Source of the DNA: Patescibacteria group bacterium
Lineage (GTDB): Bacteria > Patescibacteriota > Patescibacteriia > UBA9934 > GWF2-40-263
Assembly (NCBI GenBank): GCA_004298405.1
Contig: SCSL01000040.1
Location: 1 to 40,847 of the forward strand
DNA length: 40,847 bases
Reading direction: 5' to 3'
In this document: in pieces, positions 2,765-19,725 of the stretch
Numbering within the stretch: the stretch's first letter is position 1
Layout: every line of letters begins with the position of its first letter
Position numbers and translations under genes: made by a program
The notes under the pieces: generated by a model
What the model saw: only the letters and a program-made list of their open reading frames with translations
What the model was told of the DNA's origin: nothing
The model's database searches: none

Positions 2765-5008
2765 TTATTTAACGTCTTGCTCGGTTTTCGTCATCTCACA
2801 CAGTGCCTCCACGTCTTTTTCCAATTTCTGGAAAGAATAGTCCACCATTCCCTTTTCCACTTGCTCTGGCGTAAAGACCTTATGGAGATCTGGTTCTGAC
2901 AAAAAGGAACCAACGGGGCTTTCACCTTCCTCAAGCGTTCCCGCAAAGGAATAATCAGAACCATCAACCGTGAACCGCGTCTTTTTTCCCACAGCAAGTT
3001 CTGGTGATACTTTTGTCCGAATCTTCTGTTCCCCTTTTCGAATATTGATTCTTCCCCCATCTTCAAGCGACACTTCGATCGTCGTGTACAGCTCCGCGGG
3101 CCTTGCATCCTCAGTTTCTGCGGCCGGTTCTGCGTCTGCTTCAGCTGGAGGCATTTCTACATGGAGTGGACGTGGGACGCGAGGTGACAAGTAGCCGATC
3201 TTTTTTGGTGTTATTGGTTTGGCTCCTTTCAAGTCTGGTGCACCGTCAAGCAAATGGAAGTAGTCGAAGATCGCCCTCACTTTGGCTCGATCTGCTTGAT
3301 CCACCTGCTTGAGATAGATGTCGATCTTTAATTTGATCCATTCGGAAAACGACTCAACCTGAAATGCCTGGTTCTGTTTTTGCAAGCGATCCTTAAATCC
3401 CTGCATCCAACTCTTAATCTCACCAAGCGTGATGGTAGAAGATGACAGTGTCAATAATTCGCCTGTACTCGCATCAAGGGTGATATTACCATCCGAGTCC
3501 TCTACAAAACGCACGGCATTTGTAGGAATACTCTCTGAAGATTGGTTTCCGTAAATAAAACTGTTCTGCAATGTCTTAACCGCATTGGCCAAACGCCAAA
3601 GCGTGCTGTGTCGTGGATCCGCTCCATCCTCGATCAATACATCCTTAGCCACAACCACACGACCATCCGGCAGCGTTACTTTTTCCGCGTCTGCGAGTTC
3701 ATGTTTGACGTAGGCCGGCGTCAACTCTTTTTCTGCAATGGGGATATGCTTGTTCTCATCCAGAAGCGCCCCGAGCATAAACTCGTATAGCTCTGGACTC
3801 TGCGCCGACTGGTCAGGATAGTCTACGATAATTTCCGCAATTTCGCGACGCATGGCTGGATCAACAGCACGACGGTCTGGGTAACGTGTGCCGACCGGAT
3901 TCGTCGTCCAAATAGCGGCTGCACCTGGGAGAACGGGATGGCCATAAAAATCGTCTCCTGGCCCCTTTTGGCGAGCTTTTTTAATGATTGTATACGCTTT
4001 TGATCCAAGACGACCTGCCTCGTCAAAACGAGCGACTCTTCCCTTGAGATGAGATGGTTTCTTCTCTCGTGAATTATTGAATCCAGTAAACGCTCTCATG
4101 AGTGGTCCATATTCTTGATAACTACCACCTGTCTCGCTATCAATAGCTGTGTCCATGATTAATTGCTTCTCACCCGTGGTCGAAACACAGTCCACTTCCG
4201 TGGGTGGACTATTTGTAAGCTCCAAAGCGGCCGCATCAGCTTGATCAGACTTCCCTGTTCCTGCTTCCCCAATCAGAACCGGCCAGCGGCCATTTTGCAG
4301 AGCCGCCACAGTATCCGTATGGATTTTTTGTCTGCTTGGGAGCCAAACGAATCCTTTTTTCAATTGATCACGATACTCAACAAGTGTCTCGAATTGAAAG
4401 GCCGCAGCAATATCTGTGTTTTCAGCTGTAGGATGAACCTTTTCAAGATTGAGCTGCTTCATGTTTTCCCGTTGGGTCTTAAGCATGAGCAATCGATTCG
4501 CCAGACGTTCTGCCTTGGACTTCGCCGCTGAAATGTTCGATTTTCCTTCGACCGTCCTTAAAAACAATGCCTGTTCTACCTTTTTGAATTCCTCTTCCAG
4601 ACCTTCAATTTGTTCATTCAGGTGCTTCCATGTTTTTCCAAGATCAGACATGCGATATGATTTGGTATCTACTCGAGCCTCTGAATATGTCTTTAAGAAA
4701 AGGTCTTTTGTTTCTCTATCCTCAAACAACACCTTAATCTCGGTAATCAAATCCGCATTTACTCCAGCCTTCTTGTCGGTCACATAAGCCATGACCTTTT
4801 CATACAAAATATCGGCCTTTTCTCGGGGAGTCCGCGATCTTGACTCAGCATTTGGAGAAGATTGATACGTTGCTCGAATCTCTGCTTCTACTTCCGGATC
4901 ACTTTCATGACCCGCGAGAATTTTGCTCTCGATATACCGTAAAATGGCCGATGCTTTCTTTTCGAGCTCAGGGTTAAATTCTCCACGCGATACTCTTTCA
5001 GGAGCCAT
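2765..5008 (-). CDS. Large AAA+ ATPase with one AAA_5 (MoxR/CbbQ/NorQ/McrB-like) module and long N- and C-terminal extensions
   Basis: 747-aa ORF with Walker A GEAGTGKS (res 247-254), Walker B VARFDEAG (325-332), sensor-1 IWTTNP (366-371) and DPAMRRE (383-389). The N-terminal ~215 aa are coiled-coil-like and the C-terminal ~350 aa are unassigned. Confidence 0.75.
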   Translation of the reverse strand: MAPERVSRGEFNPELEKKASAILRYIESKILAGHESDPEVEAEIRATYQSSPNAESRSRTPREKADILYEKVMAYVTDKKAGVNADLITEIKVLFEDRETKDLFLKTYSEARVDTKSYRMSDLGKTWKHLNEQIEGLEEEFKKVEQALFLRTVEGKSNISAAKSKAERLANRLLMLKTQRENMKQLNLEKVHPTAENTDIAAAFQFETLVEYRDQLKKGFVWLPSRQKIHTDTVAALQNGRWPVLIGEAGTGKSDQADAAALELTNSPPTEVDCVSTTGEKQLIMDTAIDSETGGSYQEYGPLMRAFTGFNNSREKKPSHLKGRVARFDEAGRLGSKAYTIIKKARQKGPGDDFYGHPVLPGAAAIWTTNPVGTRYPDRRAVDPAMRREIAEIIVDYPDQSAQSPELYEFMLGALLDENKHIPIAEKELTPAYVKHELADAEKVTLPDGRVVVAKDVLIEDGADPRHSTLWRLANAVKTLQNSFIYGNQSSESIPTNAVRFVEDSDGNITLDASTGELLTLSSSTITLGEIKSWMQGFKDRLQKQNQAFQVESFSEWIKLKIDIYLKQVDQADRAKVRAIFDYFHLLDGAPDLKGAKPITPKKIGYLSPRVPRPLHVEMPPAEADAEPAAETEDARPAELYTTIEVSLEDGGRINIRKGEQKIRTKVSPELAVGKKTRFTVDGSDYSFAGTLEEGESPVGSFLSEPDLHKVFTPEQVEKGMVDYSFQKLEKDVEALCEMTKTEQDVK

Positions 5009-5078
5009 AGGAATTAGGTTATTGAGTTTATAAGGCGAAAATTAGATGTATATGTTCTTTGTACGCACACTAAAAATA

Positions 5079-7736
5079 TCAAACCCGCCTAAATTCAGCA
5101 ATCGTGCTCTCAATCACTGCCTTGGCGCTTTCTTTCGCGCGAGCCGGAAAGAGACGGATCGCCTCGGCAACAAGATGTTTAGCAACGATCGCTGGCAGAT
5201 CGTCGATGGTCTTTGCAATATCTCCACGACTGTATGGCGTATTATAAATCACAGGCACGGTACTTGCCGTCTCCGTGAGACCAATCCCCACAACAACGGC
5301 TCCAAGTTTCCCAAGCGCCTCAGCATATTCCTGCACTTTGGATGGACTGTCCGGTCCTCCATCTGAACACGCAACGACGAGTCGCAGACGTTTTTTCATC
5401 GAAACACCCTTTTTTTCTAATGCTTGCTCATCAAGAATTTGTCCATAAATATAGTTGAGCGCCTCCACATCCCCGTTACTATAACCTTGATCCGTAAGAC
5501 TGTGCCATAGCCTCACTTTGTCCTGTGGTAAAAATTTTGGAGATAATGGCTTGTCGAGATCTATATCCTCTTCTCCTGAACCTCGAAAGGAAATCCCCTC
5601 TGTCCTGACGGATAATGATTCCTCACTGGGAATTCCCGCTCGCTCGAGCGCCCGTTGAAAGCGATGAAGGGAGGAAAAAATAAGATACTCCGCCCGTCGT
5701 TGCATCTTCCAAAGTTCCTCGCCCTCGACGGTAGAGCTCATTGAGCCGGATTTGTCGCCAATAATATAGAGATCAAACCCACCAATGGACGGCTCCACAT
5801 CTTCCTCATCCTCAATTCGCTCGCGTGAAACCGGGTCGCTGTCTCCAGATGAGATGCCAATCTTGTGTCGAACAATTTCTTCTATCCCCTCACCGCCTTC
5901 CGCTTTCCGAACCGGACTGTCATATTCTTCCACAACAACTTTTCGCGACTCAACAATAGCATTAAACAACCGCGAGAGGACGTCGACGATACGCTTTCCA
6001 TTGGGAAGACGCGTATCCTCGGCAACATCAATCTCTTTGACAATCTGACGTGCTTCCTTCAGTTCAATGCCGGTCACTCTAGAGAGCTCTCGTTCCTCCC
6101 GTGTATAGCTTAGTTGTTCTTTTTTCTCCGCCAGTTCCTTGCGCAGAGCCTCCAACTTCTCATCACTGATTCGCTTCGCCTCTTGTTTGCCATAATCGCC
6201 GGGGACTTTTTGTTGAGAACCCTTTGTTTGCTCTTCTTCAAGGTTTGGATCTCCCGCAGGAGTCGCATCGATCCGTTCCCATCGGAGCGTTGTTTCATCC
6301 CACACTTCACTCCAAGCATGTCCCGTACCGGAATGAATTTCTGAAGCACCCGTCGCATTCTTGCCCTTCACGCTATGACCGACGACTTGACGAGTGGCAA
6401 TATTTAATTGCGCGCACAATGCGGCAAAATACGTGTTGGACACATCACAGTCAGCCATTTGATGTGTGTCGATGGATCCAAAATATCCGCGAGGATCAGA
6501 ATCGTAAATCGCGTTAAGTGAGCTGTCGTTTGAATAGGTCAAGTGCTGCTGTGTATAAGCCGCAAGCGCCCATGCCTTGGCAAGCTTCGTTTTCTTGCTC
6601 GAACGGATCTTGGCAATGAACTGTTGCGTTTCTTCTGAAAACTGAACGGGCATGTTTGGCACCTTGACCTTGGCGCGATCAACCGGCCCGTGTATTTTTT
6701 GCGAAATCGGGGCAAAGACAACTTTCACCTCAACGATTCCAGTGCCCTGCACCATGATAACAACGTCTCCATTTTGATCCTGTTGTAAAACGTAAGGAAA
6801 CGCACATTCGACTTTTGAAATTCCGTGCGTGTACGGACTCGGGACGCTCACCCATTGGTTGGCGTGCAACTCCGAGTGAACTGTAAAGTTGATTCTCCCC
6901 TTTTTTTTGTCCTCGTTTTCACTCAGGGGAACCATCTGGACGTCATGATACTCATAGGAGGGCTCGACCCAGGTATTGCGTCTTGCATCCCACACGGACA
7001 ATGATTGTTCTCGAAAATATCCTCCATACGCTGGGAAGATCGTCCAAAAAGCGGGGGCACGCTCCCCTTCTTTCAGCCGATCCATTTCATCCATGCTTGG
7101 CTTGCTTTCGTTTCTGCGTGAAGGTGGATTCTTTGATTGCCCGTTCAACTTTTCCTGACGAGCTTTCCTCACATCGTCGGGCATCAGATTCCCCTCACGC
7201 TTATCCAATGCACGCCGGCCGGCGAGGTATCCTTCAAAACGCGTGTCGAGGCGGTTGAGTTTCACCTCCCATGATTCCGTTGTTGATGTGAGAACATCCA
7301 AATCGCCTGATTCGATTAAATCAGCAAGTTTTACTCTCGTTTCCTCGAACTTCGGTTCGTAGGCGTTCCCTCGCAACTCAGAAATAACCCCTCGATACAA
7401 GTCGGCTACGCGTGGAGAAAATGCCCTGCTTCTCAACTCGGCCTCATCAAGCAGTCGGCTCTTTTCCTCTTCTTTTTCGCTATCCGGAAATGGTGAACGA
7501 TTAACCGAATCGATATCTTCAAACACTTGATAAAAACTTGGAAACCGATGTGCATACAACTTGGCACGCACATCAATAAAATCCTCGACCGTTTCAAGGG
7601 CGGCGGCCGCATCTTCAAAACTCTCGCCCAAAAGAGCGGCTTCATGAGACCGTTCAAGAACACTTGCTGTGTGGAGCGTCTCGCTGACTTTGGGCGCTTC
7701 AACAGGAGGAACAAACCCTTCCGGAGTTTCTCTCAT
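5079..7736 (-). CDS. Transglutaminase-like (Cys-His-Asp) domain fused to a C-terminal von Willebrand A domain
   Basis: 885-aa ORF. The TGase core is ADC(430)DVSNTYFAALC ... GH(473)AWSEVW ... RID(490)ATP. A Glu/Lys coiled coil follows. The vWA MIDAS is D661-K-S-G-S665, with SDGG at 791-794 downstream. No signal peptide or TM segment is seen. Confidence 0.8.
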   Translation of the reverse strand: MRETPEGFVPPVEAPKVSETLHTASVLERSHEAALLGESFEDAAAALETVEDFIDVRAKLYAHRFPSFYQVFEDIDSVNRSPFPDSEKEEEKSRLLDEAELRSRAFSPRVADLYRGVISELRGNAYEPKFEETRVKLADLIESGDLDVLTSTTESWEVKLNRLDTRFEGYLAGRRALDKREGNLMPDDVRKARQEKLNGQSKNPPSRRNESKPSMDEMDRLKEGERAPAFWTIFPAYGGYFREQSLSVWDARRNTWVEPSYEYHDVQMVPLSENEDKKKGRINFTVHSELHANQWVSVPSPYTHGISKVECAFPYVLQQDQNGDVVIMVQGTGIVEVKVVFAPISQKIHGPVDRAKVKVPNMPVQFSEETQQFIAKIRSSKKTKLAKAWALAAYTQQHLTYSNDSSLNAIYDSDPRGYFGSIDTHQMADCDVSNTYFAALCAQLNIATRQVVGHSVKGKNATGASEIHSGTGHAWSEVWDETTLRWERIDATPAGDPNLEEEQTKGSQQKVPGDYGKQEAKRISDEKLEALRKELAEKKEQLSYTREERELSRVTGIELKEARQIVKEIDVAEDTRLPNGKRIVDVLSRLFNAIVESRKVVVEEYDSPVRKAEGGEGIEEIVRHKIGISSGDSDPVSRERIEDEEDVEPSIGGFDLYIIGDKSGSMSSTVEGEELWKMQRRAEYLIFSSLHRFQRALERAGIPSEESLSVRTEGISFRGSGEEDIDLDKPLSPKFLPQDKVRLWHSLTDQGYSNGDVEALNYIYGQILDEQALEKKGVSMKKRLRLVVACSDGGPDSPSKVQEYAEALGKLGAVVVGIGLTETASTVPVIYNTPYSRGDIAKTIDDLPAIVAKHLVAEAIRLFPARAKESAKAVIESTIAEFRRV

Positions 7737-7786
7737 AGATGTGAAATCCTCTGATTGTGCCTGGATGAATTGACGATACTAAGAAG

Positions 7787-7815
7787 AGTTTATCCACTTT
7801 ATTCTGGTTGTGCAA
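7787..7815 (-). promoter_or_regulatory. Candidate sigma70-type promoter for the TGase-vWA/AAA module
   Basis: Minus strand reads TTGCAC-N17-TAAACT, about 50 nt upstream of the ATG at 7736. It is a sequence match only. Confidence 0.25.
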
Positions 7816-7928
7816 CAGAGTTATTCACTTTAGCCTGGTGGTTTATCCTACTGGAGGTAATCGAGGCATCATCGCAGTGCCGCAGTTGCAATCTCATTCC
7901 GTTGGTCCTTACACGTCTCTTGTTAGAA

Positions 7929-8703
7929 TTAGGAAAATTTTCGAACGGAGGCGATACCGAGGTGTCTGAGCTGAACGCTGTCGTCCCAGTAGTAGATACT
8001 GAGACCGCCCATATCGAAGCCCCCGACGCTGATGTGGTCGCCGTCCAAGTCGACATCGCTAGTGCGGACGTCTATCGCCCCGAACAGACGCTCCCCCGTG
8101 GCGAGGAGTGTGTAGGATCATCGTGTAGATGACCTGTCTCGCTGAGGGAATCTCCTCAATCTCTGGGTCGATGAGCGATTGCTGATCGCTCCAATTCCTA
8201 GAGAAACTATCTTCAACAGCGCTTTTGTGGATGAGCCGCCAACAAGCATCTTGGGTGCGTTTGGCAAAGTCTTTACCCCTTACCTCGAGCATTGAATGTC
8301 TGTGAAACGCACCTATATACTTCTGTTCCAAGTCCAGGATCGATGTTCCGATGTCTGCGATAAGGACGTGTGTGTCGGCACACTCCCGGAGGGTTTCAAG
8401 AGAAAATGGGATGGTAGCAAGCGCTTCTTTTTGCTCGTGGGTTAGGATACCCAAATGTTCTTCAACCTGGGAGATCCCTAGGAAGTTCCTACCCATAATC
8501 TCAGGGGCAAGTGAGGTATTGACTCTTTCTTGAAGTGCTTGGGTCTTTTCTGAAAGTCCTCGTTTGAGTCCTTGAGCCTTCAAAATGTCCTCAGACTTCC
8601 CCAAGGAAATCGCCAAGTCATACGCAACACCAAACTCTTGCTTGAGGGAACGGATTTCCTCGAGCGAAGCCTGGGCACTTAGGCAGGTTGATGAGTCGGG
8701 CAT
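7929..8703 (-). pseudogene. Orphan protein, paralog of 27908-28960; the reading frame is interrupted and needs a +1 shift between 8062 and 8117
   Basis: The 214-aa ORF (8059-8703) stops at TAG. The next frame, open from 8117 to TAA 7929-7931, encodes ...DVDLDGDHISVGGFDMGGLSIYYWDDSVQLRHLGIASVRKFS. This matches the paralog C-terminus ...DSDGDPHVFSVGRDDDGSWLYSLW...FVFRLRKS. A G5 run (C5 on the plus strand, 8093-8097) lies in the switch window. Confidence 0.55.
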
Positions 8704-9521: not shown

Positions 9522-11528
9522 TCAATCAAAGCGAATCGTCTGGCCTGTATGCAACGTGCCGGTCTGTTCCTGCGGAGGACGTGGTTGAGTCGGTTGTGAC
9601 AATGGAGGTACGGGCGGTGCTGGGCTCTTTTTTTTCTTGCGCTTACGTTTCTTTTTCTCTTCTTCTTGATTCTCGGTTGATACCGGTCTTGGCGCAACAG
9701 ATTTTTGACCTGTCTCTTCCCGACGCTTGGCTCGAATTTTTTCAAGACAACTCTCACAATAGAGTGGTCGAGATGGATCAAGTTTTACACCGGCAGAAAA
9801 CGCCTTCCCACAATCGGAACAGGTGTAACTGAAAGACTCGGTTCGAGGAACACTCCTGCGTGGTGGCTCAGGAAGAGGTTTTTTTTCGACCGGCTCCGTG
9901 ATTCGCGGTGGAACCGTTACTGGTTTCACAAGCGACCCAAGGCTAATCGATGGTTCATCTGGGAGCTTTTCATCCTTGTCCTCTCCCTGAGGTCTCGCGG
10001 GTCGTTCGATTCTTTCTGGAATCTTCACATCTCTTCCCCCCTTTTTTCCTTTCCGTTCCTCACGCACGATCGCAATGCAATCATCGCAATAGATCGGTCG
10101 AGAGCGATCAAGTTCGACTGGTAACACAACCTCTTTTTCGCACCGGGAACATCTGTATTCAAACCGCGGCTTCTTGCTTTCCTTTGCCGCTTTTTTCTTT
10201 TCCGCCGCTTCCTGCAGGAGCGTGTCCATATCCGCATCCTCCATTCCACTCCAAGTAAGAATCTTCGCCTCGATTTCTGCACGAGGCCTTGCGTATCGTT
10301 CACGAGAAATTTTAATCACCTTTTCTCCGGAGTGCGTTGTTTGAGAAATCGGAGGGAGCGTGATGGCCGAGAATGGTTGACTTGTAACACCATCAATAAG
10401 AAGCTTGATGTAAATATTGTATTTTGGAAGATTGATAATATCTTCAGGAGTAAATCGCGGCATGAACTCCGCCTCCATAAACATCGCATCAGGAGAACCC
10501 ACGCGGAACGTAATAATCGTCCCCACGTTCCCAAAGACCGCGTCACGGACTTCTTCTGTCAGTTGCGCGATGTATTGGTGAGCCATCGTCAGACATAAAC
10601 GATATTTCCGCGCTTCGGAAAGAATGCTTGCAAATGATTCGACCGCAAAATTTTGGAACTCATCTACATAGAGATAAAAATCTTTTCGTTCGTGTTCTGG
10701 CGTATCAACACGTTCCATGGCCGCGAGCTGCATTTTTGTGATGAGTAATCCTCCAAGAAGCCGTGAGTTGTCTTCTCCAATACGGCCTTTTGATAAATTG
10801 ATGATGAAAATCTTTTCCGTATCCATGATCTCGCGGACATTAATCGAAGACTTCACTTGCGCAACAATATTGCGAATGACGACCGCAGACAGGAATTGAC
10901 CGATCTTATTTTGAATCGGCGCCACCGCCTCCTGGGCGTATTTCTCATTGTAGGAAGCAAACTCAACCAACCAGAACTGCTTCACGACCGGATCCTTCAC
11001 ATTCCCAACGATCCGTTTGCGGAAATCCGCATCTGACAACAACCGGTTGATTCCCAGCAACGTCTGGCCGGGCGTATCCAAAAGGGCCAACAGCGTATTG
11101 TTCAAGATGTACTCCATGCGGCTGGACCACATATTCTCCCAAATCTTTTGGAAGACTCCCATCATTCCTGACACGACAAGATGCTTATGGGATTCACTCA
11201 CGGCTTCCAAGATATTGAAGCCGACAGGAAAATCCATGTCCGCGGGATTGAAATAGACCACATCATTCAGACGCCAACTTGGAATAAAATCGATGAGCTT
11301 CTCGGCGGTATCCCCGTGGGGATCCACATAGCAACACCCGTGACCCGCGTAGATGTCCGATAAAATATAATTCTCAAGCAGAACGGTTTTTCCCATCCCT
11401 GTCTTTCCAATCACATACACATGCCGGCGACGGTCGTCGGTTTTGATCCCAAACTTCGTCATCTGATTTCGGAAGTTGGTCTTAGCAAAGTAACTCACTT
11501 CGTTTTCGTGGTCGTGATTATAAGACAT
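9522..11528 (-). CDS. VirD4/TraD/TraG-like (type IV coupling protein-like) P-loop ATPase without a membrane anchor, with two C-terminal CxxC..CxxC zinc ribbons and a Lys/Pro-rich tail
   Basis: 668-aa ORF with Walker A GKTGMGKT (41-48) and Walker B FYLYVDEF (284-291), followed by RKYRLCLTMAHQYIAQL. The zinc ribbons are YRCSRCEKEVVLPVELDRSRPIYCDDC and YTCSDCGKAFSAGVKLDPSRPLYCESC. The tail contains KKKRKRKKKK. Confidence 0.8.
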   Translation of the reverse strand: MSYNHDHENEVSYFAKTNFRNQMTKFGIKTDDRRRHVYVIGKTGMGKTVLLENYILSDIYAGHGCCYVDPHGDTAEKLIDFIPSWRLNDVVYFNPADMDFPVGFNILEAVSESHKHLVVSGMMGVFQKIWENMWSSRMEYILNNTLLALLDTPGQTLLGINRLLSDADFRKRIVGNVKDPVVKQFWLVEFASYNEKYAQEAVAPIQNKIGQFLSAVVIRNIVAQVKSSINVREIMDTEKIFIINLSKGRIGEDNSRLLGGLLITKMQLAAMERVDTPEHERKDFYLYVDEFQNFAVESFASILSEARKYRLCLTMAHQYIAQLTEEVRDAVFGNVGTIITFRVGSPDAMFMEAEFMPRFTPEDIINLPKYNIYIKLLIDGVTSQPFSAITLPPISQTTHSGEKVIKISRERYARPRAEIEAKILTWSGMEDADMDTLLQEAAEKKKAAKESKKPRFEYRCSRCEKEVVLPVELDRSRPIYCDDCIAIVREERKGKKGGRDVKIPERIERPARPQGEDKDEKLPDEPSISLGSLVKPVTVPPRITEPVEKKPLPEPPRRSVPRTESFSYTCSDCGKAFSAGVKLDPSRPLYCESCLEKIRAKRREETGQKSVAPRPVSTENQEEEKKKRKRKKKKSPAPPVPPLSQPTQPRPPQEQTGTLHTGQTIRFD

Positions 11529-11536
11529 GTGTATTG

Positions 11537-13090
11537 TTAAATAGGTAGATTTGGAGGCACATACCCATCAGGCTCTTTTGTCAGTTTCTCTTTCAACGAC
11601 GGTTCATGCAACACGGGTGCGTGTGGATGTGGGAGGGTTTCAGGGAGCGGCTCGTCGCTCACCTCTGGAAAATCCATATGTGGAAGAGATAGCCCTTCCT
11701 GTTCTCTCTCGCTTTCTGGAGGGACATATCCAGGCAAAACCTCGTCTGAAAATGTGATAGGAAGTCCGGAGGGTGGTTCCGCACGCTTGGATTCGCTCTT
11801 TTTGACAAGGGGTGCCTTTATCGTCACAGGAGGAAAATGCCACAGAGTGGCTAACTCTTCAACATTCAAGACTATCGGATTTGCCCCGGCACCCCAGCTA
11901 CGTCCTTGATATCCAGACATGAGTCGATGTTGTTTTTTTGTGTACACCAAACGCATCCAAAAATAATCATCTTTAGGCACTTGTGGAATATAAAGGGTGA
12001 ACTTATTGAGATTGAGATTAGAAAACTGGTTCAGGACCCCTTTCACAATACTCGTACGTTCCACTTTGACAAACGCATTTTTGCGCGCCACATACAGCAC
12101 GCGAATTTTCACACCTAGTCCAATCTTGGAGGCCTTCCTCAGGACTGCCTCTGCTTCCTCCTTTTGGGCCAATGTTACCTTAAATGCCTTCCACTGGTCT
12201 TCTTCTTTTTTTTCCTCAGATTCTCCTAAAAGGCCGCTGACATCAAGACCAACCGCCTCCTGAATAAGACCGGCCGGCCAAGAAAGCGTTGACTCAAGGG
12301 CTCCAAGAAAAGCGCTCTTTTTTTGCTTATCTTCAACTCCATACAATTTATTCACAAATTTGATGCTCTTTTTCTGCCAGTCATTGCTCGAAGGCTGAAC
12401 CAACATCTGAATCCAAAAATGCTCTCCTGGACGCATCTTCCCCAATTGTTCAAGTGTGATGGATAACGGATCCTTAATTTCCTGTGAAATTCGGTCCTCA
12501 AAATCCAAGTGCGTCCGAATCGGGAACATATCGTCATTTTCGAGCGTCACCTCCCCACCCCACATTTCGTAATCGTCGTTCGGGTATTCGTTTGGAAATT
12601 TCTTTGCATAGTCTTCCACCTCAGAAATCTCCGCCTCCGGGTAATTGGCATAAATGCCTGCCTCAATCACATCACGGAACCGCGTCTGTGTCCTGACAAG
12701 AAACTGGATGTACCCTTCCGTTGAAATAATTTCAAATGAAAACACAGGGTGCAGTTTTCCATCAAACCATTTTTCTTTCCAGGTGATACTTGATTTTGTG
12801 GCATACAGCGACGCGAAGAGATTTTCAAATGCCTTCGGTGTCTGTTCGGTCATGCTGGGGACATCAATAGCCAAGACGGTGAATTTCAATTTTCCAACAT
12901 AGATGCCACGCCGGTAGTTGAGCCACATTTCGGTAAATCCCCATCCAAGAGTAATGACAATCGGGATCCACCCAAACCAAATCAGGAAATCATAAAGTAT
13001 GACATCAATGGGTTGATCGAAAAAAGAAGACGGGCTTTGAGCCAACCCTGTTACCTGACTGACAATGGGGATAGCTAAGAGCGCAAACAT
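11537..13090 (-). CDS. Membrane-anchored protein of unknown function, translationally coupled partner of the VirD4-like ATPase
   Basis: 517-aa ORF with N-terminal hydrophobic segments (MFALLAIPIVSQV.., ILYDFLIWFGWIPIVITLGWGF), a large soluble domain and a Pro/Glu-rich tail. Its stop is 8 nt before the next start. Confidence 0.7.
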   Translation of the reverse strand: MFALLAIPIVSQVTGLAQSPSSFFDQPIDVILYDFLIWFGWIPIVITLGWGFTEMWLNYRRGIYVGKLKFTVLAIDVPSMTEQTPKAFENLFASLYATKSSITWKEKWFDGKLHPVFSFEIISTEGYIQFLVRTQTRFRDVIEAGIYANYPEAEISEVEDYAKKFPNEYPNDDYEMWGGEVTLENDDMFPIRTHLDFEDRISQEIKDPLSITLEQLGKMRPGEHFWIQMLVQPSSNDWQKKSIKFVNKLYGVEDKQKKSAFLGALESTLSWPAGLIQEAVGLDVSGLLGESEEKKEEDQWKAFKVTLAQKEEAEAVLRKASKIGLGVKIRVLYVARKNAFVKVERTSIVKGVLNQFSNLNLNKFTLYIPQVPKDDYFWMRLVYTKKQHRLMSGYQGRSWGAGANPIVLNVEELATLWHFPPVTIKAPLVKKSESKRAEPPSGLPITFSDEVLPGYVPPESEREQEGLSLPHMDFPEVSDEPLPETLPHPHAPVLHEPSLKEKLTKEPDGYVPPNLPI

Positions 13091-13150: not shown

Positions 13151-14047
13151 TTAGGACTTTCTATACAACTCCCATGTAACCAACAGCGGGCTGGCGAAAA
13201 AAATCGAGGAATAGGTTCCAACAGCAATGCCAATCATGAGCGCGAGTGCGAATGGTTGGGTTGACTCACCGCCAAAAAAGAACACGGCCGTAAGGGCAAG
13301 AAGTGTGGTGAGTGATGTGTTCACAGATCGTGTAAATGTTTCGCGAATGCTTCTCTCGACAACAACGGGAAAGTCTTCCCCTCTGTGCTGAAGAAGATTT
13401 TCTCGCGTTCGATCAAACACGACAACCGTATCTGAAATTGAGTACCCCAAGATGGTCAAAATCGCCGCCACGAATCCTGACCCGATCTCCCAATGATAGT
13501 ACTGACCCAAAAGAGCGAAGACACCCAGAGGGATAATCACATCGTGTGCCGCGCAGAGCACCGTTATCAGCCCATACTTCCACGAAGCAATGGGTTCGGA
13601 AACCTTGCGAAATGCCCATGAGATGTACAAACCGATCAAGAGCAGGGTTACAAGAACCCCGATGATCGATGAGCGACGAAGCTCAGAACCAACCGTTGGA
13701 CCAATCGAATCAAACCTCAGCTCGGTGAATTCACCAAACGTCTCCCTCAGCGTCGCAAGGGTTGCTTGATGCGTGGCTTCATCCTGCGCTTCTGAGCGAA
13801 GAATCAATTTTTGATTCTCGTCTGCTGACTGCACAGACAGACCTTTCAGAGAGGTCAGCACCTGCTTCACCTCCTGCGTGGGTGGCGCTCCTTGGGCAAA
13901 TTCAAGTTCGATGAGCGAACCCCCGGTGAAATCCGCACTGAACTTCAGTCCGAAGACGACAAGAAATCCAATACTCAAAAGGATGCTGATCGCGGATACG
14001 GCGAACCAGTATTTTCTCCACCCGACGAACGAAAAAGTTGATGTCAT
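13151..14047 (-). CDS. secF: Protein translocase subunit SecF
   Basis: 298-aa ORF with six-TM SecF topology and the motif FSADFTGGSLIELEF. It overlaps the secD stop by 4 nt. Confidence 0.92.
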   Translation of the reverse strand: MTSTFSFVGWRKYWFAVSAISILLSIGFLVVFGLKFSADFTGGSLIELEFAQGAPPTQEVKQVLTSLKGLSVQSADENQKLILRSEAQDEATHQATLATLRETFGEFTELRFDSIGPTVGSELRRSSIIGVLVTLLLIGLYISWAFRKVSEPIASWKYGLITVLCAAHDVIIPLGVFALLGQYYHWEIGSGFVAAILTILGYSISDTVVVFDRTRENLLQHRGEDFPVVVERSIRETFTRSVNTSLTTLLALTAVFFFGGESTQPFALALMIGIAVGTYSSIFFASPLLVTWELYRKS

Positions 14048-16107
14048 ACGTTTTTATTTCGAGAAAATCCGTAAAGCGTTGGGGACTGCACGGCGCGAAT
14101 CCCACGAAGACTTTTCATATAGACACGCGTGACCGTAATAGCCGTAAACAACGAAAGGAGCACGCCAACCGCGAGGGTGAGCGCAAATCCTCGGACAAAA
14201 CTTGAGGTGAAACTGTAGAGCACACACGCGGAAATAAGCGTAGTGAGATGTCCATCGCGAATAGGTGGCCAAGCTCGCTTAAATCCTTCGTCTACAGAAG
14301 AAACAAGATCTCGGCCTTTCCGGAATTCGTCTTTGATGCGTTCAAAGATCAGCACATTCGCGTCCACCGCAATCCCCAACGACAGAATCAATCCGGCAAT
14401 TCCCGAAAGCGTAACCGTCACGCCAAAGAGTCGATAGGCGGCCAGGTTCAATACCACGTAGAGACACAATGCCAGTGTTGCGAGAAGCCCTGGCAATCGA
14501 TACACAACGATCATGAAAAGCGCCACCAGAGCAAAACCAAGATAGGCGGCGGTCAAACTTTTCTCTAATGAGACGAGCCCAAGCGTTGGTCCCACGGTCT
14601 CCTGCGAAAGAAGCTCAACCGAAACCGGAAGCGCTCCCGCGTTGAGTCGCTGGGCGAGAAGCTTGGCTTCCTCAACCGTGAAGTCTCCCGTAATCACCGC
14701 CTTTCCTCCGTAAATGGCCTGTTGCACAACCGGCGTTGAGATGGCTTCCCCATCCAAGAAAATCGCCATAGGCTCACCAACATGACTTTCCGTCAAAGAC
14801 GCGAACAACTCTCCCCCTTCCGCATTAAACGTCAGGGCAACATACGGAGCCCCAGAACTCGGATCGAATTCCACGCCTGCGCGCTCAAGATGCTTTCCGG
14901 AAAGTTCGGTGTTTATCCAAGGCGACGCCTGCGGCACGACATCATAGATATCCGAGAGCGGCATGAGAATGCGTTGAATGGTGTATGCCGGCTCTGTGCG
15001 CTGATCACGTTTGTAGATGAGATGGTATCCAAATTCTGTTTCGACGACCGTAGAAATTTCACCAACTTCCAACGCCGCTGAGGCCAGGCCAAAAGAAGCC
15101 ACGTAATCCTGTGCGGTTGACCAACCTAAATCTCCAGAATTGGAAGTTGCCGATGGATCTGTTGAATACTGTTTTGCAAGATCAGCAAAATTCTCTGGGG
15201 TCGCTTGATCCTTTAGGCTATTGATTTGAACGGAGGCGTCCAAAGCAGAAACAGTACTGGTACAACCTGTTTTTCCTTCAAAACAAATCAAGATATGTGA
15301 GAGCAACATCTGAGTTTGTTCACTCGGATTGAGATACTTAAAGATGCTCACACCCTCCTCATTTTCCAACAAATTCCCGTTCACCTGTCCTGGTTGAACA
15401 CCTCGTTGCTCAATGAGCAACACATAATCCATGTAAAAAGAATCGACAGTGATATTCTCGAGGATCCCTTTGGTTGTTTCCTTGTTTCTCTCTGTGCTGA
15501 ATTCGGAAACGAGCGCATCAAAATCCTCACCGGCAAGTGCGCGATTGAGAACCACGTTCGCATCCGCACGTTCTTGCGTATTCAATGCCTCAAGCTGGGC
15601 CAGTTGCTCAGGTGTTGGATCTTCCTCCAGCTCCTCTCCTGGTTCCTTAAACTCGAGAACAGGCGTCTCTCCAATAAGCGCAATTGCCTCAGAGACATCC
15701 AAAACACCCGCCAGTTCAATAATGACCCGATACGTGCCACCCGTGGTCGTTGTTTGCACGACCGGTTCTGATACGCCAAACGCATTCACTCGTCGCTCAA
15801 TCACATCGCGGACCCCTTCCAGAGCGGTGAGACGATCCCCTTCTGGAATCTGAGACATATCTGCCTCATACACAAGGTGTGTGCCTCCTTGAAGATCCAA
15901 GCCCAATCGGAATGGTTCCTCACTCATGGTTGGTGGAAGCCAGCCGGTTTTTGCTTGTACTGTCTGGGCACCTCGATTCCAGATTCCCGGAAAATCATAC
16001 AGACCGATCACAAGTGTCGCGACGAGGGCCATGATCGCCACGAGTCTGGGTTTCCAGTTCTTTTGCTCGGTCTTCTTAATCTTTTTCTTGAGTTTCCATG
16101 TTTGCAT
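14044..16107 (-). CDS. secD: Protein translocase subunit SecD with a parvulin-type PPIase insertion in the periplasmic P1 region
   Basis: SecD motifs FRLGLDLQGGTHLVYEAD, the P1 base and a C-terminal six-TM block are present. The start is moved to ATG 16105-16107 (MQTWKLKKK.. before TM1). The insertion carries SHILI...YSTDPSATSNSGDLGW...EFGYHLIYK. Confidence 0.9.
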   Translation of the reverse strand: MQTWKLKKKIKKTEQKNWKPRLVAIMALVATLVIGLYDFPGIWNRGAQTVQAKTGWLPPTMSEEPFRLGLDLQGGTHLVYEADMSQIPEGDRLTALEGVRDVIERRVNAFGVSEPVVQTTTTGGTYRVIIELAGVLDVSEAIALIGETPVLEFKEPGEELEEDPTPEQLAQLEALNTQERADANVVLNRALAGEDFDALVSEFSTERNKETTKGILENITVDSFYMDYVLLIEQRGVQPGQVNGNLLENEEGVSIFKYLNPSEQTQMLLSHILICFEGKTGCTSTVSALDASVQINSLKDQATPENFADLAKQYSTDPSATSNSGDLGWSTAQDYVASFGLASAALEVGEISTVVETEFGYHLIYKRDQRTEPAYTIQRILMPLSDIYDVVPQASPWINTELSGKHLERAGVEFDPSSGAPYVALTFNAEGGELFASLTESHVGEPMAIFLDGEAISTPVVQQAIYGGKAVITGDFTVEEAKLLAQRLNAGALPVSVELLSQETVGPTLGLVSLEKSLTAAYLGFALVALFMIVVYRLPGLLATLALCLYVVLNLAAYRLFGVTVTLSGIAGLILSLGIAVDANVLIFERIKDEFRKGRDLVSSVDEGFKRAWPPIRDGHLTTLISACVLYSFTSSFVRGFALTLAVGVLLSLFTAITVTRVYMKSLRGIRAVQSPTLYGFSRNKNV

Positions 16108-16223
16108 AGTGGTAAAATAGTCGGGCGTAAGTGTAGGCGATGAAGCGCCCAAGAGCAAGTGGACAACCGTTGACGGGATCCACTGTGTGTGATCTGATGG
16201 GTTCTACCCAAAAGGAGGTGCGC

Positions 16224-17513
16224 GTGGAAACCTACCAGCCCGAAGCTTGGGTGTATAACCCGTTCAACGTTGAACGGGTTCTCAGTCAGCTCCCAAGGGA
16301 ACTCTTTGATCCCCCTTCCTGCATGGCGTTGGGGGAAACGCTGCGTCTTCATGGCGGCAAGACCCTTGGACTGCGTGTGTGTGAACGAGTCGCTGAGAGT
16401 TCGCCACACCTGCACATTCCGCCGTGGACAACGCTTCCTGCGGGTTTCCATCTCTCGACGGACTCGATCGAAAAATTTCAAGACTGGATCAAGGGTCGGA
16501 ATGGACCCTTTAAGGTGCGAAGTTCAAGCCGAACTGAGGACTGGCTCTCTGGGGTCAGTGGAGCTCTGCAATCGCGAACCGTTTACGATCCACAGAGAGT
16601 CCTCAACCACGCACAGGAAGTGTCGCAGTTGCGAGATCCAGTCGTTGTCCAGAAATTCGTCGACGGGATCGGTTTGGTTGTCGATATCGCCTACAGCCAG
16701 ATCATGCGTCAACCCATCGTCCGGATCTCAACCGGACGAGAACTGAAACTCTCCTCAGGAAACCGCTTCTTCTCTTCCTCAACGTGGGATCATGAGGGAC
16801 GACATGAAGTCCTGGATCCTTTGAACGGGGAACCTCTGTTGGAGCGATGTACTGGTGAACTCTTCGATGGTTCCTGCCTGGGATTTCCCCTTTCGGATCT
16901 TGCTTGCGAGCTCTGGCAGAGGATTCAGGATCTGGGAATCACCTTCGGTGTCCAACTGGAGCTCGTGATCCATCCGGACACGCCACAAGAATGGTCGTTG
17001 GTGCAAATCCGACCCTCGCCCAACCGTGTACGAGCCGATGGGCTCACCTTCTCGCGAACGGACTCAGCCATCGTGACGACCCCCGCTGTCAGTCGGTCGT
17101 TTTGCCTCCAAGCCGAGGCGAAAACCACGACAGAGGATGATATCAAATGGCTGTTCCTGGCCGCCATCGGCGGAGTCGATGAGGCAATCTCGCGTTTCAA
17201 CCGCACATATGCCGCACCCCAAATCCTCGTTTGGAGTGAACCGATGCAGGCGGATTTCAACATTCACCTGCTGGATATCGCATTCCGAACAGGAGCCCGC
17301 ATTCAGGTCACGGAAGGAGTGATCACCATCAGTACGAGCCACGCAACCATCCGAAACATCGCACCCTCAGATCAGGCGAGCCTGATGTCCATAGCTGGGA
17401 TCATCGCGGTTCCGAAAAAAGTGCACATGAATCTTCTGAAGCTCCTTCATCAGGAACCTCGAACGCTCCTCGCCCAATCCGACGGACTGGTCGGACAACT
17501 CGCCTTCCCCTGA
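16224..17513 (+). CDS. PPDK_N-type ATP-grasp protein with a possible C-terminal phosphohistidine swivel-like segment (PEP synthase / rifampin phosphotransferase-like)
   Basis: Motifs HGGKTLGL, IPPWTTLPAGF, FKVRSSSRTEDWLSGVSGALQS and VVVQKFVDGIGLVVDI are present, with a C-terminal ISTSHATIRN. The start is set to GTG 16224, preceded by AAGGAGG (16212-16218). Confidence 0.6.
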   Translation: METYQPEAWVYNPFNVERVLSQLPRELFDPPSCMALGETLRLHGGKTLGLRVCERVAESSPHLHIPPWTTLPAGFHLSTDSIEKFQDWIKGRNGPFKVRSSSRTEDWLSGVSGALQSRTVYDPQRVLNHAQEVSQLRDPVVVQKFVDGIGLVVDIAYSQIMRQPIVRISTGRELKLSSGNRFFSSSTWDHEGRHEVLDPLNGEPLLERCTGELFDGSCLGFPLSDLACELWQRIQDLGITFGVQLELVIHPDTPQEWSLVQIRPSPNRVRADGLTFSRTDSAIVTTPAVSRSFCLQAEAKTTTEDDIKWLFLAAIGGVDEAISRFNRTYAAPQILVWSEPMQADFNIHLLDIAFRTGARIQVTEGVITISTSHATIRNIAPSDQASLMSIAGIIAVPKKVHMNLLKLLHQEPRTLLAQSDGLVGQLAFP

Positions 17514-17711: not shown

Positions 17712-18581
17712 TCAGACTTGGAAGAAGACGACCGTCGCATCATCCAGAAACGGACGAAGGATCGGTGAGAGACGTGTCACGATCGTCTGAAGACGATCCC
17801 AATCCTGGACACACTTTTCGTACGCAAGCCTTCGGAAAGCGACCTCGACCAGTCCACTTGCTCCGTCTGAGCACAAGGCAAAGATCGTGCCGTTGGGCGC
17901 TTCATCCGGTCGGATGAGGCGGACATCCGGCGTGTGGATGAACGCTGGATGGAATGGCGTGTTGCCAAATCCACGCGTCGGGATCAGACCATACGTGGAT
18001 GGCTTTCCGTCCACGATATGATGAAAGCGCTTGACCATCGTATGGCTACCAGGACGTCTGTGATCCGTTTGAGTAAAACGTCCGGTCGCATAGTGCGGAC
18101 GAAGCCGCTCTTGCTCCTGGGGCGCTGTCACATGATGATCCGCGGTGAAGAGGGTATATGGATCTCCATCGTTGTCATCAATCACCGTATACAGCCGAAC
18201 ATCCCCCGCGTGCGCGACCGTCACACCGTCATCAGAGACCACGGCACAGCCAGCAACGGCTCCGTACATCGTGTCCGGATACTGCCTCTCTACTGACTCT
18301 TGAACAGCGTCAAAGACCGTCAGCAGTTCTCCAGGGGAGAATGATCGAGTCAAGGAGTTTTCTTGGAACGGACGAGCCAACCCATTCGCCACGTGCTGGG
18401 CGAACTTTTGCACATCACGCGAAAGGGCGTTGAGCTCATCCTCCTCGGCATCCAACGGTCTCAGCACATGACCATCGGTCACGACCGCGACAAACGGCCA
18501 ACCGGACACCACGCAATACGCATCCTCAGACACAGGGCGTCGAACACCGGTTTCTTGAAAAACACACGTTGAAACGAGCAT
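17712..18581 (-). CDS. PP2C/PPM-family protein phosphatase-like protein
   Basis: 289-aa ORF with the ordered PPM motifs VSEDAY, VAVVTDGH, VAHAGDVRLY, LCSDGASG and C-terminal DDATVVFF. A strong SD (AAGGAGG) lies upstream. Confidence 0.7.
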   Translation of the reverse strand: MLVSTCVFQETGVRRPVSEDAYCVVSGWPFVAVVTDGHVLRPLDAEEDELNALSRDVQKFAQHVANGLARPFQENSLTRSFSPGELLTVFDAVQESVERQYPDTMYGAVAGCAVVSDDGVTVAHAGDVRLYTVIDDNDGDPYTLFTADHHVTAPQEQERLRPHYATGRFTQTDHRRPGSHTMVKRFHHIVDGKPSTYGLIPTRGFGNTPFHPAFIHTPDVRLIRPDEAPNGTIFALCSDGASGLVEVAFRRLAYEKCVQDWDRLQTIVTRLSPILRPFLDDATVVFFQV

Positions 18582-18699: not shown

Positions 18700-19725
18700 T
18701 TAACTTTTAGCCGTGTAGTACGTCGCTCGGCCCTTTCCGTGGCGCTCAATCAGCTTTTGATCGAGCAGATATCGGAAGTCGAGAGCACGGGTTGGCTTGG
18801 CTCTAGCAACCAACGTGGCATAGACCGTGTCATTGATGGATGGGTGCTCACGGAGGTATTCCAGAATAACACGATGGTGGTCCTTCAAACCGGATGTCGG
18901 AGACTCCACCGTTTTCTCCAGTAGCTCTTTGACCCGAAGAAGCTCATCAAGCACGCCGTCGGTGAAGTATTCAAGCCACGGGGTAAAATCGACGTTAAAA
19001 TCATAGTAACTTCCCCGTTCACCTACCGTGGCGAAATACTTAGTCACATTCCCGTTGTAATAGCGCTCAAAGCTAAAGAGGTGAAAGATGTCGATGCCGA
19101 GAGCGGCGAGCAAAAGGGTGGTCAACAATCTGACTGTGCGACCGTTCCCATCCATGAACGGGTGAATCAGGACAAATTGCTTATGGAAAATTCCAGCCAG
19201 AATCAACGGGTCGATCTTCTCTTTTTTAACATTGGAAAACTCCAACAGCTGTTCAAGTAATCGAGGGACGTCTTCGTGATCCGGCGGCCAAAAGATCGTC
19301 TGACCCAATTTTGGATCATTAACGAAGACTGGCGCTGTTCGGAGAGCTCCGGAAGAAAACTCCGGTAATAACCTATTGGTCACTGAACGTTGGGTATCGA
19401 GGATGGTCTGGATATCAATGGTGGCAGTCCCCAAATCAATCCGTTTCTTGAGCTCCAAAAGCGCTTCGTTGTAATTCAGAACTTCCCGTTCAGAGTCCCG
19501 AACCCGATCAGGTGCTTGCTTCAAAAGCCTCTTTACGTCCGTGAGAGGAAGAGGGTTGCCTTCAATGCTGGTGGAGGCGTGGGCGGAAATCTCCCGGGCC
19601 ACACGTTCCATTTCAAAGGTAACAACCTGAGGAAATCGCCGTTCGTTCAGGCTTGTTACGATCTCGGCGATTCGCTTAATGTTGGCAAGAAGGGCGGGAG
19701 TAATTGTGTATTTTGGCTCAAACAT
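18700..19725 (-). CDS. Fic-family protein (AMPylase type) with an N-terminal inhibitory motif and a C-terminal winged-helix-like region
   Basis: 341-aa ORF with the canonical Fic motif HPFMDGNGRTVR. The upstream STSIEG fits the (S/T)xxxE(G/N) inhibitory helix of class II Fic proteins. Confidence 0.9.
   Translation of the reverse strand: MFEPKYTITPALLANIKRIAEIVTSLNERRFPQVVTFEMERVAREISAHASTSIEGNPLPLTDVKRLLKQAPDRVRDSEREVLNYNEALLELKKRIDLGTATIDIQTILDTQRSVTNRLLPEFSSGALRTAPVFVNDPKLGQTIFWPPDHEDVPRLLEQLLEFSNVKKEKIDPLILAGIFHKQFVLIHPFMDGNGRTVRLLTTLLLAALGIDIFHLFSFERYYNGNVTKYFATVGERGSYYDFNVDFTPWLEYFTDGVLDELLRVKELLEKTVESPTSGLKDHHRVILEYLREHPSINDTVYATLVARAKPTRALDFRYLLDQKLIERHGKGRATYYTAKS

Follow-up and report, generated by a model that had tools for sequence, protein, structure and literature searches.

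A MoxR-class ATPase and a transglutaminase-like vWA protein as the possible core of a three-component cytoplasmic system in the Candidate Phyla Radiation

Two adjacent genes in a Patescibacteria genome assembled from a metagenome encode a protein that joins a transglutaminase (TGase)-like domain to a von Willebrand factor A (vWA) domain and, downstream of it, a MoxR-class AAA+ ATPase. They lie on contig SCSL01000040.1, in a stretch of 40,847 nucleotides that was analysed as a whole and is called the window here, and their database copies are EPN81_02175 and EPN81_02170. With a little more confidence than doubt, the pair can be regarded as the constant chassis of a three-component, cytoplasmic, ATP-gated sensor-effector system, possibly one that acts in biological conflicts. 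An earlier note, made from the letters of the window, had described a module of two genes. The comparison with relatives within the Candidate Phyla Radiation (CPR) gives three parts instead, the third of which is a hypervariable binding domain that is rewritten in these relatives by a diversity-generating retroelement (DGR). The window itself appears to encode all three components, because a small gene upstream of the pair aligns with the variable domain of the long ATPases found in relatives. Its sensor is of a different class, is not diversified locally and is apparently broken.

The pairing of the two genes is constant wherever it can be followed. ORFs were called and clustered in the window and in 58 fetched loci (n = 59). 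In 36/36 main-clade loci with at least 1.5 kb of downstream sequence, the TGase-vWA gene is followed directly by the ATPase gene in the same orientation. The lengths of the contigs and the adjacent locus tags also agree between the homologue lists of the two proteins. This is the conserved pairing for which the earlier note had proposed a survey of related genomes. The spacer has a median of about 9–12 nt in relatives, as against 70 nt in the window. The two co-directional ORFs and their gap agree exactly with the present ORF calls (Table 1), and a motif check on the translations recovered every motif first quoted: YFREQSLSVWDARRNTW at aa 240, Cys430 in DCDV, His473 in GHAWSE, Asp490 in DATP and DKSGS at 661 in the TGase-vWA protein, and GEAGTGKS at 247, FDEAG at 328, WTTNP at 367 and DPAMRRE at 383 in the ATPase. 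Among the matches listed, there are at least 120 full-length CPR homologues of the TGase-vWA protein (46–74% identity) and at least 120 homologues of the ATPase (40–76% identity), the latter in short (~750–790 aa) and long (~960–1100 aa) forms. With more than 120 full-length homologues each, at 40–76% identity, the two ORFs are, judged by conservation, real genes and not chance frames.

The long form of the ATPase carries the third component. Long-form relatives run on by about 300 aa past the position of the terminal helix of the short form (aa 714–746) into a hypervariable domain, and these extra residues are homologous to stand-alone proteins of 300–390 aa that are encoded beside short-form ATPases. 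The ATPase and the target domain are thus related by fusion and fission. The C-terminus of the window ATPase, which had been left unassigned, corresponds to the arm that bears the hypervariable domain, fused in relatives and apparently encoded by a separate gene here. Directly beside the pair, two more gene clusters occur, a bAvd protein of ~125 aa (C3; Pfam bAvd, E 5e-6) and a reverse transcriptase of ~330 aa (C2; Pfam RVT_1, E 9e-15). Nineteen loci contain 22 template/variable repeat pairs in which 80–100% of the mismatches fall at template adenines, for example 19/19 in L024 and 20/21 in L004. Such adenine-specific mismatches are a DGR signature. The template repeats sit between the genes for bAvd and the reverse transcriptase. 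All variable repeats that could be assigned to a gene are 3'-terminal, either in a long ATPase gene or in a stand-alone target; four are at contig edges. The variable repeat takes up the final ~110 nt of the binding domain, so that the targets of the relatives vary at their C-terminal end. A DGR gene is present in 25 of the 59 loci and in 10 of the 15 with long flanks. The system is genuinely targeted by DGRs in these relatives.

Locus L005 contains three to four target paralogues (7353-8435, 14238-15323, 15327-16409 and a partial copy at 1-276). They are identical over ~840 nt and differ in the last ~170 nt, which is the expected variable region, and in the first ~60 nt; this N-terminal variation may reflect the chosen ORF starts. 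No reverse transcriptase was found within the 21.8-kb stretch fetched of this 84-kb contig.

In the window, the gene that resembles the stand-alone targets lies directly upstream of the TGase gene. The ORF as called spans 8059-8703 (214 aa) and can be read through to the stop at 7929. The resulting protein of 258 aa aligns end to end with the class II domains of the long ATPases of L002, L023, L027 and L040, including the variable-repeat segment. When the protein L010_3 was used as a tblastn query, its residues 51-248 matched 8703..8110 and its residues 249-288 matched 8108..7989 in another frame, with 52% identity over 40 aa. The N-terminal helix of the window sensor is 63% identical to the class I target helix of L059. 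In the nearest relatives, L059 and L060 (TGase-vWA proteins 71–74% identical), a class I target ending in GVRSAVRV occupies the same upstream position, and a second, inverted target copy follows the ATPase gene. A search for intact close relatives of the window sensor in metagenome contigs gave no matches, and the alignment proved too divergent for search patterns.

Some further observations concern the sensor genes and their relatives. Inverted target copies bracket the TGase-AAA pair at three loci (L059:1-467 / 5752-6218; L060:461-793 / 6032-6364; L007:8808-9917 / 15121-16227). The arms are complementary at 91–92% in L059 and L060 and at 78–89% in L007, with ~5.2–6.9 kb between them, and neither a reverse transcriptase nor a template repeat was found in the stretches of these loci that were searched. 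Antisense to the window sensor gene lies a plus-strand ORF of 125 aa (7755-8132), which is probably spurious. On the plus strand at 27908-28960, a protein of ~350–368 aa starts with an adaptor helix (MP..C...SLE.IR.LKQ.F...) that is common to the sensor gene at 8703 and to the L007 and L059 targets. Its C-terminal domain differs and ends in ...DSDGDPHVFSVGRDDDGSW...FVFRLRK. It was rejected as another class II sensor, as only the N-terminal helix is common, and it may dock on the ATPase as a second partner, encoded 20 kb away.

The domain identities of both conserved proteins come from profiles, models and conservation. Sequence searches with both proteins and with the family profiles against all PDB chains gave nothing significant, and fold comparison alone was informative. 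The alignment-based AlphaFold model of the TGase-vWA protein (pLDDT 83.8) shows five regions (Table 1). For the N-terminal helical domain, no Pfam or PDB relative was found. The top Foldseek match of the TGase region in PDB is the periplasmic domain of TgpA (6g49/6g4h; E 1.6e-8, ~305–315 columns, TM-score on target 0.67–0.74). In the preceding beta-sandwich, W256 is invariant among 43 homologues, and at least 90% of them share G239, Y240 and W249. The Pfam profile Transglut_core (PF01841) matches aa 372-490 (E 3.7e-8, 34.1 bits against a curated cut-off of 23), and C430, H473 and D490 are invariant both in the 43 homologues and in a 13-sequence alignment that includes distant clades. By its profile match and triad, the protein is assigned to the Transglutaminase-like superfamily (PF01841, papain-like fold), and the catalytic core and triad first proposed are borne out. 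The domain is a predicted enzyme, which could act as a protease or as a transamidase.

The coiled-coil linker of the first description is seen in the model as charged helices, and the acidic loop behind them is predicted to be disordered (pLDDT <50 at 602-646). The vWA domain with an intact MIDAS (metal ion-dependent adhesion site) was also recovered, by another route than the profile searches first proposed. Pfam supports Transglut_core and AAA_5 above the curated cut-offs and gives no vWA match in the window protein itself. The vWA assignment holds nevertheless because of fold matches, MIDAS invariance and the matches of relatives. Foldseek searches with this region of the model returned, with probability 1.0, Rea1-MIDAS (6qt8), ANTXR1/2, the NorD vWA domain (9qh8_G/9qhd_G), C2a and TRAP. 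Among the 43 homologues, D661, K662, S665, S791, D792 and G793 are invariant and S663 and G664 reach at least 90%, and relatives carry precomputed PF00092/PF13519 matches. The region is thus modelled as a Rossmann-like vWA fold and has the DxSxS motif with a downstream Asp.

The model of the ATPase has a pLDDT of 91 and a pTM of 0.80. As had been described, a single AAA_5 module (Pfam, aa 244-338, E 1.6e-7, 31.9 bits against a curated cut-off of 22) follows a helical N-terminus, for which neither Pfam nor PDB sequence or profile searches gave a relative. The module contains Walker A (247-254), a hairpin insert (285-300), Walker B (D329/E330), sensor-1 N370, R375 and sensor-2 R388. The motif residues are mostly invariant among homologues, with D329 conserved in at least 90%. 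The top 14 Foldseek matches are all NorQ (9qh7/9qh8/9qh4) or CbbQ2 (6l1q), with E 7e-9 to 2e-8 and a TM-score on target of ~0.7, and the helix-2 beta-hairpin insert is modelled as strands E285-289/E296-300. By these motifs (Walker A/B, sensor 1, Arg finger, sensor 2) and by its modelled fold, the protein is classified as a MoxR-class AAA+ ATPase (AAA_5; NorQ/CbbQ-like). The pairing of a MoxR-class ATPase with a vWA protein, as first suggested, finds a counterpart in the solved structures, since the same complexes, those of NorQ-NorD, hold the best matches of both proteins (9qh8_A/C/F for the ATPase; 9qh8_G/9qhd_G for the vWA domain). By analogy, a hexameric ring and a physical contact with the vWA partner would be expected. 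In the C-terminal arm, the segment GYLSPRVPRP is nearly invariant (G605, Y606, L607 and S608 invariant; P609-P614 at least 90%). It also stands at the N-terminus of the stand-alone target L045_6, and in the sister clade it marks the start of separate targets.

A hydropathy scan found no signal peptide or transmembrane segment in any of the three components. The Kyte-Doolittle maxima are 1.64 for the TGase-vWA protein and 0.64 for the ATPase, both in modelled beta-strands, compared with 2.49 for the positive control SecF; the TGase-vWA protein has no hydrophobic N-terminus, in line with what was first noted. All parts of the system appear to be cytoplasmic. NCBIfam has no family for either protein of the pair. 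The pair is not a catalogued defence system, because NCBIfam gave none and PADLOC returned weak coiled-coil-type matches only. Scans of the window for tRNAs and Rfam families were empty, and a scan for promoters and terminators gave no informative outcome.

Table 1. Features of the window that belong to the system or may be accessory to it
Feature	Position	Strand	Basis or remark
TGase-vWA protein, 885 aa	5079..7736	-	ORF; upstream gene of the pair
All-helical N-terminal domain, aa 19-198	7143..7682	-	Model secondary structure; family-specific
Beta-sandwich ahead of the TGase core, aa 229-343	6708..7052	-	Model strands; holds the GGYFREQSLSVWDARRNTW motif
Transglutaminase/papain-like core, aa 368-490, Cys430-His473-Asp490 (predicted)	6267..6635	-	Pfam PF01841
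Charged helical linker, aa 525-600, then low-confidence acidic loop, aa 600-650	5937..6164	-	Model helices
vWA domain, aa 653-862, MIDAS D661-x-S663-x-S665 + D792 (modelled)	5151..5780	-	Foldseek, conservation
Spacer separating the pair, 70 nt	5009..5078	-	ORF limits; no terminator-like site within
MoxR-class (AAA_5) ATPase, 747 aa, short form	2765..5008	-	ORF; Pfam AAA_5
N-terminal helical bundle of ATPase, aa 13-238	4295..4972	-	Model helices
AAA+ module, aa 240-486	3551..4291	-	Foldseek, Pfam, conservation
GYLSPRVPRP near-invariant motif, aa 605-614	3167..3196	-	Conservation among ATPase homologues
Small beta-domain, aa 643-711, and terminal helix, aa 714-746	2771..3082	-	Model
Stand-alone homologue of the class II DGR-target domain, ~258 aa read through	7929..8703	-	tblastn, alignment; N-terminal adaptor helix
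VirD4/TraG/HerA-like ATPase with treble-clef zinc ribbons, possible accessory	9522-11528 + 11537-13090	-	Pfam, PADLOC

The named homologues are nearly all from CPR lineages (Uhr-, Falkow-, Kaiser-, Doudna-, Pace-, Magasanik-, Moran-, Berkel-, Gracili- and Levyibacteria), and a few records carry other automated labels. From these records, the system is judged to be confined to CPR/Patescibacteria. A profile search of 1.84 billion cluster representatives gave 629, 326 and 120 proteins at E <=1e-3, 1e-10 and 1e-30, respectively, and a scan of one genome for each of 185,579 species, which used exact patterns and so undercounts, gave 53 loci. A viral origin of the pair was ruled against by the 2.9 million viral contigs of IMG/VR, which hold no relative, and by the viral fold library BFVD, which gave generic vWA domains only. 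In a sister clade (L045-L054), the TGase-vWA proteins are ~32% identical to the window protein and have Pfam vWA matches. The gene order there is ATPase, targets, bAvd, reverse transcriptase and TGase-vWA, and the ATPase and target are split exactly at the GYLSPRVPRP-like motif. In the proteins of Peregrinibacteria (~1,120 aa in L055, L056 and L058; also L057), the match stops before the vWA region. These four loci are placed outside the module because ORF clustering found no ATPase-cluster gene there.

The flanking genes differ at almost every locus of the pair. The VirD4-like gene is split in the window into ORFs of 517 and 668 aa (Pfam TrwB_AAD_bind and TraG-D_C; PADLOC mad8, E 7e-18). Eight loci from three clades have a member of its cluster (C5) close to the pair, and in L004 and L030 it is a single protein of 1241 aa. 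Several loci have, in the neighbourhood, genes typical of mobile or defence islands (large serine recombinases, Replic_Relax, AbiEii and mad8 or HerA-like ATPases), as well as genes for HTH regulators and VirD4-like ATPases. Among 150 neighbour proteins of the related loci, there was neither a dominant fourth partner nor a defence-island signature. A few other genes of the window deserve mention. SecD (14044-16158, minus strand) has an unusual architecture, with a PPIC-type peptidyl-prolyl isomerase (rotamase) inserted at aa 272-385 between the P1 subdomains. A PP2C phosphatase (17712-18581) adjoins a Fic/DOC-domain protein (18700-19725) on the minus strand, and the sizeable ORFs 16140-17513 and 26543-27778 have no family match.

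Taken together, these parts would make a machine in which recognition is coupled to an enzyme. The first component would be the MoxR-class ATPase, presumably a hexamer like NorQ and CbbQ, with a C-terminal arm that bears the ligand-binding domain. This domain, the second component, is fused in the long-form relatives; in the window it would be made as a small protein of its own that docks through an N-terminal helix. The third component would be the vWA co-factor, the MIDAS of which may engage a partner peptide and which is joined through the charged helical linker to the TgpA-like Cys-His-Asp enzyme. In many relatives, the DGR beside the pair rewrites the terminal ~110 nt of the binding domain and would thereby turn it into a programmable receptor. 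The ligand of the variable domain could be a cytoplasmic molecule, with a protein from an invading phage or mobile element as the most plausible candidate. Its binding might then be turned by the AAA ring into ATP-driven remodelling of the vWA-linked protein, which could expose or position the TGase-fold active site so that a target is cleaved or cross-linked. A role in conflict with phages or elements would be the most economical reading of such a design, and the gene context lends it modest support. The earlier note had suggested an NTP-gated protease or cross-linker acting in remodelling, quality control or conflict. Of these, conflict, in the sense of recognition, is now favoured, and remodelling and quality control have become less likely.

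A number of observations weigh against this sensor-effector reading. What the system does is inferred from its architecture and context only. The variable domain has no match among Pfam or PDB sequences, and a profile of the class II targets gave no lectin-fold match in PDB. No reverse transcriptase or bAvd was found in the 40.8 kb of the window by tblastn with all cluster members, and an adenine-tolerant scan of both strands for a template repeat returned the self match alone. The sensor-like gene has an apparent +1/-1 frameshift at ~8107-8114, which could be a genuine pseudogene mutation, population heterogeneity or an assembly error. As this gene appears frameshifted, the window copy may be a DGR-less, split version in which the sensor is fixed or decaying. 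The pair is flanked in the window by housekeeping genes (mnmA, HD hydrolase, uppP, secDF), the rest being an ordinary CPR chromosome with secA, murB/murC, glyA, folD, dnaB, recR and clpB as well. In related loci, sugar epimerases, glycosyltransferases and ribosomal genes are found near the pair as often as genes of mobile elements or defence. Since the model is highly confident at GYLSPRVPRP, this segment probably has a structural role and is unlikely to be a free peptide for recognition or cleavage. Two defining marks of the published VMAP-type MoxR-vWA systems are also missing: no VMAP, iSTAND, FtsH or beta-propeller third gene occurs among the window neighbours or the 150 neighbour proteins, and a regular-expression search of the window ATPase gave neither the WxhapG nor the PsWRxa N-terminal motif of the MoxR proteins concerned.

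A more specific form of the sensor-effector idea can be put forward tentatively, with the doubts outweighing the expectation. The system could be a cytoplasmic, retroelement-programmed "antigen receptor" of CPR bacteria, in which a hypervariable, putatively lectin-type domain sits on a MoxR ring and acts through vWA/MIDAS on a TGase-fold executioner. The window would then hold the same chassis with a fixed (or decaying) sensor. If this were true, the commonest DGR targets of CPR bacteria would be intracellular immune sensors and not host-attachment proteins.

CPR bacteria live attached to host cells, and the variable domain could serve to recognise changing host molecules, the role first put forward for the DGR targets of these bacteria, with the ATPase, vWA and TGase parts delivering it, anchoring it or acting on host proteins. 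Such a device for host interaction is unlikely on the present evidence. The VirD4/TraG-like ATPase near the pair, in the window and in the other loci that have it, might aid delivery, and protein cross-linking is established chemistry for the TGase-fold superfamily. Reviews also assign a role in attachment or host adaptation to the DGR targets of CPR bacteria (PMC10221324; PMC10907252 for clade 5F). On the other hand, signal peptides and membrane segments are absent from all three components, cytoplasmic ATP is required by an AAA+ ring that is fused to the variable domain, and the VirD4-like gene occurs in just 8/59 loci, with no other secretion genes in the neighbourhood survey.

A housekeeping role seems a shade more improbable. 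The pair would act as a maturation chaperone that remodels or processes one client, with the TGase domain as the maturation protease, in the manner of NorQ-NorD, CbbQ-CbbO or MoxR-DUF58-transglutaminase. The closest solved structures are indeed NorQ-NorD and CbbQ, the last-named triad occurs widely among other bacteria (PMC6803598, PMC12067865), the window copy stands among housekeeping genes without a DGR, and conservation is high, at 46–74% across CPR classes. Nevertheless, DGRs target exactly this system in at least 19 loci, and a fixed client needs no hypermutated binding domain, which counts against a chaperone of this kind. The patchy distribution (the 53 loci of the species scan, an undercount, and about 120 strong clusters in 1.84 billion) and the variable neighbourhoods also speak against it.

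It is least probable that the pair is the cargo of a mobile island, serving an element in exclusion, addiction or transfer and moving horizontally among CPR lineages, since the island-type genes of several loci, the highly variable contexts despite ~50% identity across classes and the inverted target copies of L059, L060 and L007 are set against recombinases in just 8/59 loci, the lack of relatives in IMG/VR and BFVD beyond generic vWA domains, and the absence of a recombinase, repeat boundary or compositional break around the window copy.

DGRs are unusually abundant in CPR and DPANN genomes, and their diversified products are largely uninterpreted and mostly discussed as host-attachment factors. 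That AAA-fused targets are always encoded together with a vWA-Cys-His-Asp partner, and that no part has export signals, turns an orphan "variable protein" into a complete sensor-motor-effector machine that can be tested. It also connects CPR biology with MoxR-vWA conflict systems, which have been described in multicellular bacteria. The new points are the strict coupling of the CPR ATPase to a vWA protein with a conserved Cys-His-Asp TGase-fold enzyme and the apparently cytoplasmic location of all parts. The natural series of fusions and fissions, in which the sensor is fused or split at two points, with or without a DGR, can be useful for dissecting how force is transmitted between MoxR and vWA proteins. 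For the window copy itself, the conclusion is more modest: it is a DGR-less member with a broken-looking sensor gene and is possibly degenerate.

NorQ-NorD and CbbQ-CbbO consist of an AAA_5 hexamer and a MIDAS-bearing vWA adaptor that grips the client. These are the best structural matches of the present pair, which likewise combines one AAA_5 module, bearing a hairpin insert in helix 2, with an adjacent MIDAS vWA gene; identity to the window proteins is only 11–19%. Compared with NorQ and CbbQ, the window ATPase adds a 238-aa helical N-terminus and a 260-aa C-terminal arm, and compared with NorD and CbbO, the vWA protein adds ~650 aa (helical domain, beta-sandwich, TGase core and linker). No nitric-oxide reductase or Rubisco genes were found near the pair. 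In the MoxR(MRP)-DUF58-transglutaminase operons (Pseudomonas TgpA and the bifidobacterial PFNA cluster; PMC6803598, PMC12067865), a MoxR ATPase, a vWA-related protein and a TgpA-like TGase are linked, as here. However, their transglutaminases span the membrane several times and have the catalytic domain outside the cytoplasm, the ATPase belongs to the MRP subfamily (PMC6803598) and DUF58 is separate, whereas the present enzyme is predicted to be soluble and fused to the vWA domain, and the ATPase is of AAA_5 type. The pair does not belong to this triad: it has no transmembrane segment, its fused vWA domain has no DUF58 match, and its ATPase matches AAA_5 only.

The ATPase half belongs to a class of CPR DGR targets that has already been reported (PMC10907252, PMC5758913). 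"UVR4 / Midasin-like" DGR targets were described in CPR bacteria (PMC5758913), and a passage of PMC10907252 that cites Paul et al. 2017 gives AAA-ATPase-fused variable proteins as the commonest DGR target architecture there. As in these reports, the long-form relatives have an AAA_5 (midasin/dynein-type) ATPase with a C-terminal variable repeat of ~110 nt and an adjoining cassette of bAvd, template repeat and reverse transcriptase. The window ATPase differs in being a short form without the variable domain, in a window without a DGR. The literature searched, to which Paul et al. 2017 did not belong, so that a prior description is possible, holds no account of an obligate TGase-vWA partner, of the fusion and fission series or of DGR-less members. 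The initial statement that no described system of this kind was known thus stands in part: NCBIfam and PDB searches found no characterised family covering either full architecture, and the ATPase half was already on record.

In its presumed working, the system resembles the MoxR-vWA "ternary" conflict systems, in which vWA proteins carry fused effectors and DGRs diversify lectin-type domains (Kaur, Burroughs, Iyer & Aravind 2020, PMC7159879). The pair is not a VMAP-type ternary system, as it has neither such a third gene nor the ATPase motifs of that type. In the published systems, a transglutaminase-like peptidase is recorded as a rare effector, and TGase effectors sit on VMAP and not on the vWA protein. 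In the present system, it is the ATPase to which the variable domain is fused, or on which it would dock, and not the vWA or VMAP protein. The surveys left CPR bacteria out of their statistics, whereas the host range here is CPR. What is common to both is a MoxR-class ATPase, a vWA protein with a fused effector, a third component, a predicted cytoplasmic location and frequent coupling to a DGR, which in the published systems diversifies a lectin-type sensor (PMC7159879, PMC10907252). Doré et al. (PMC10907252) read such systems as running from sensor to ATPase to effector, and it is this order of events that the present pair and its hypervariable partner may follow.

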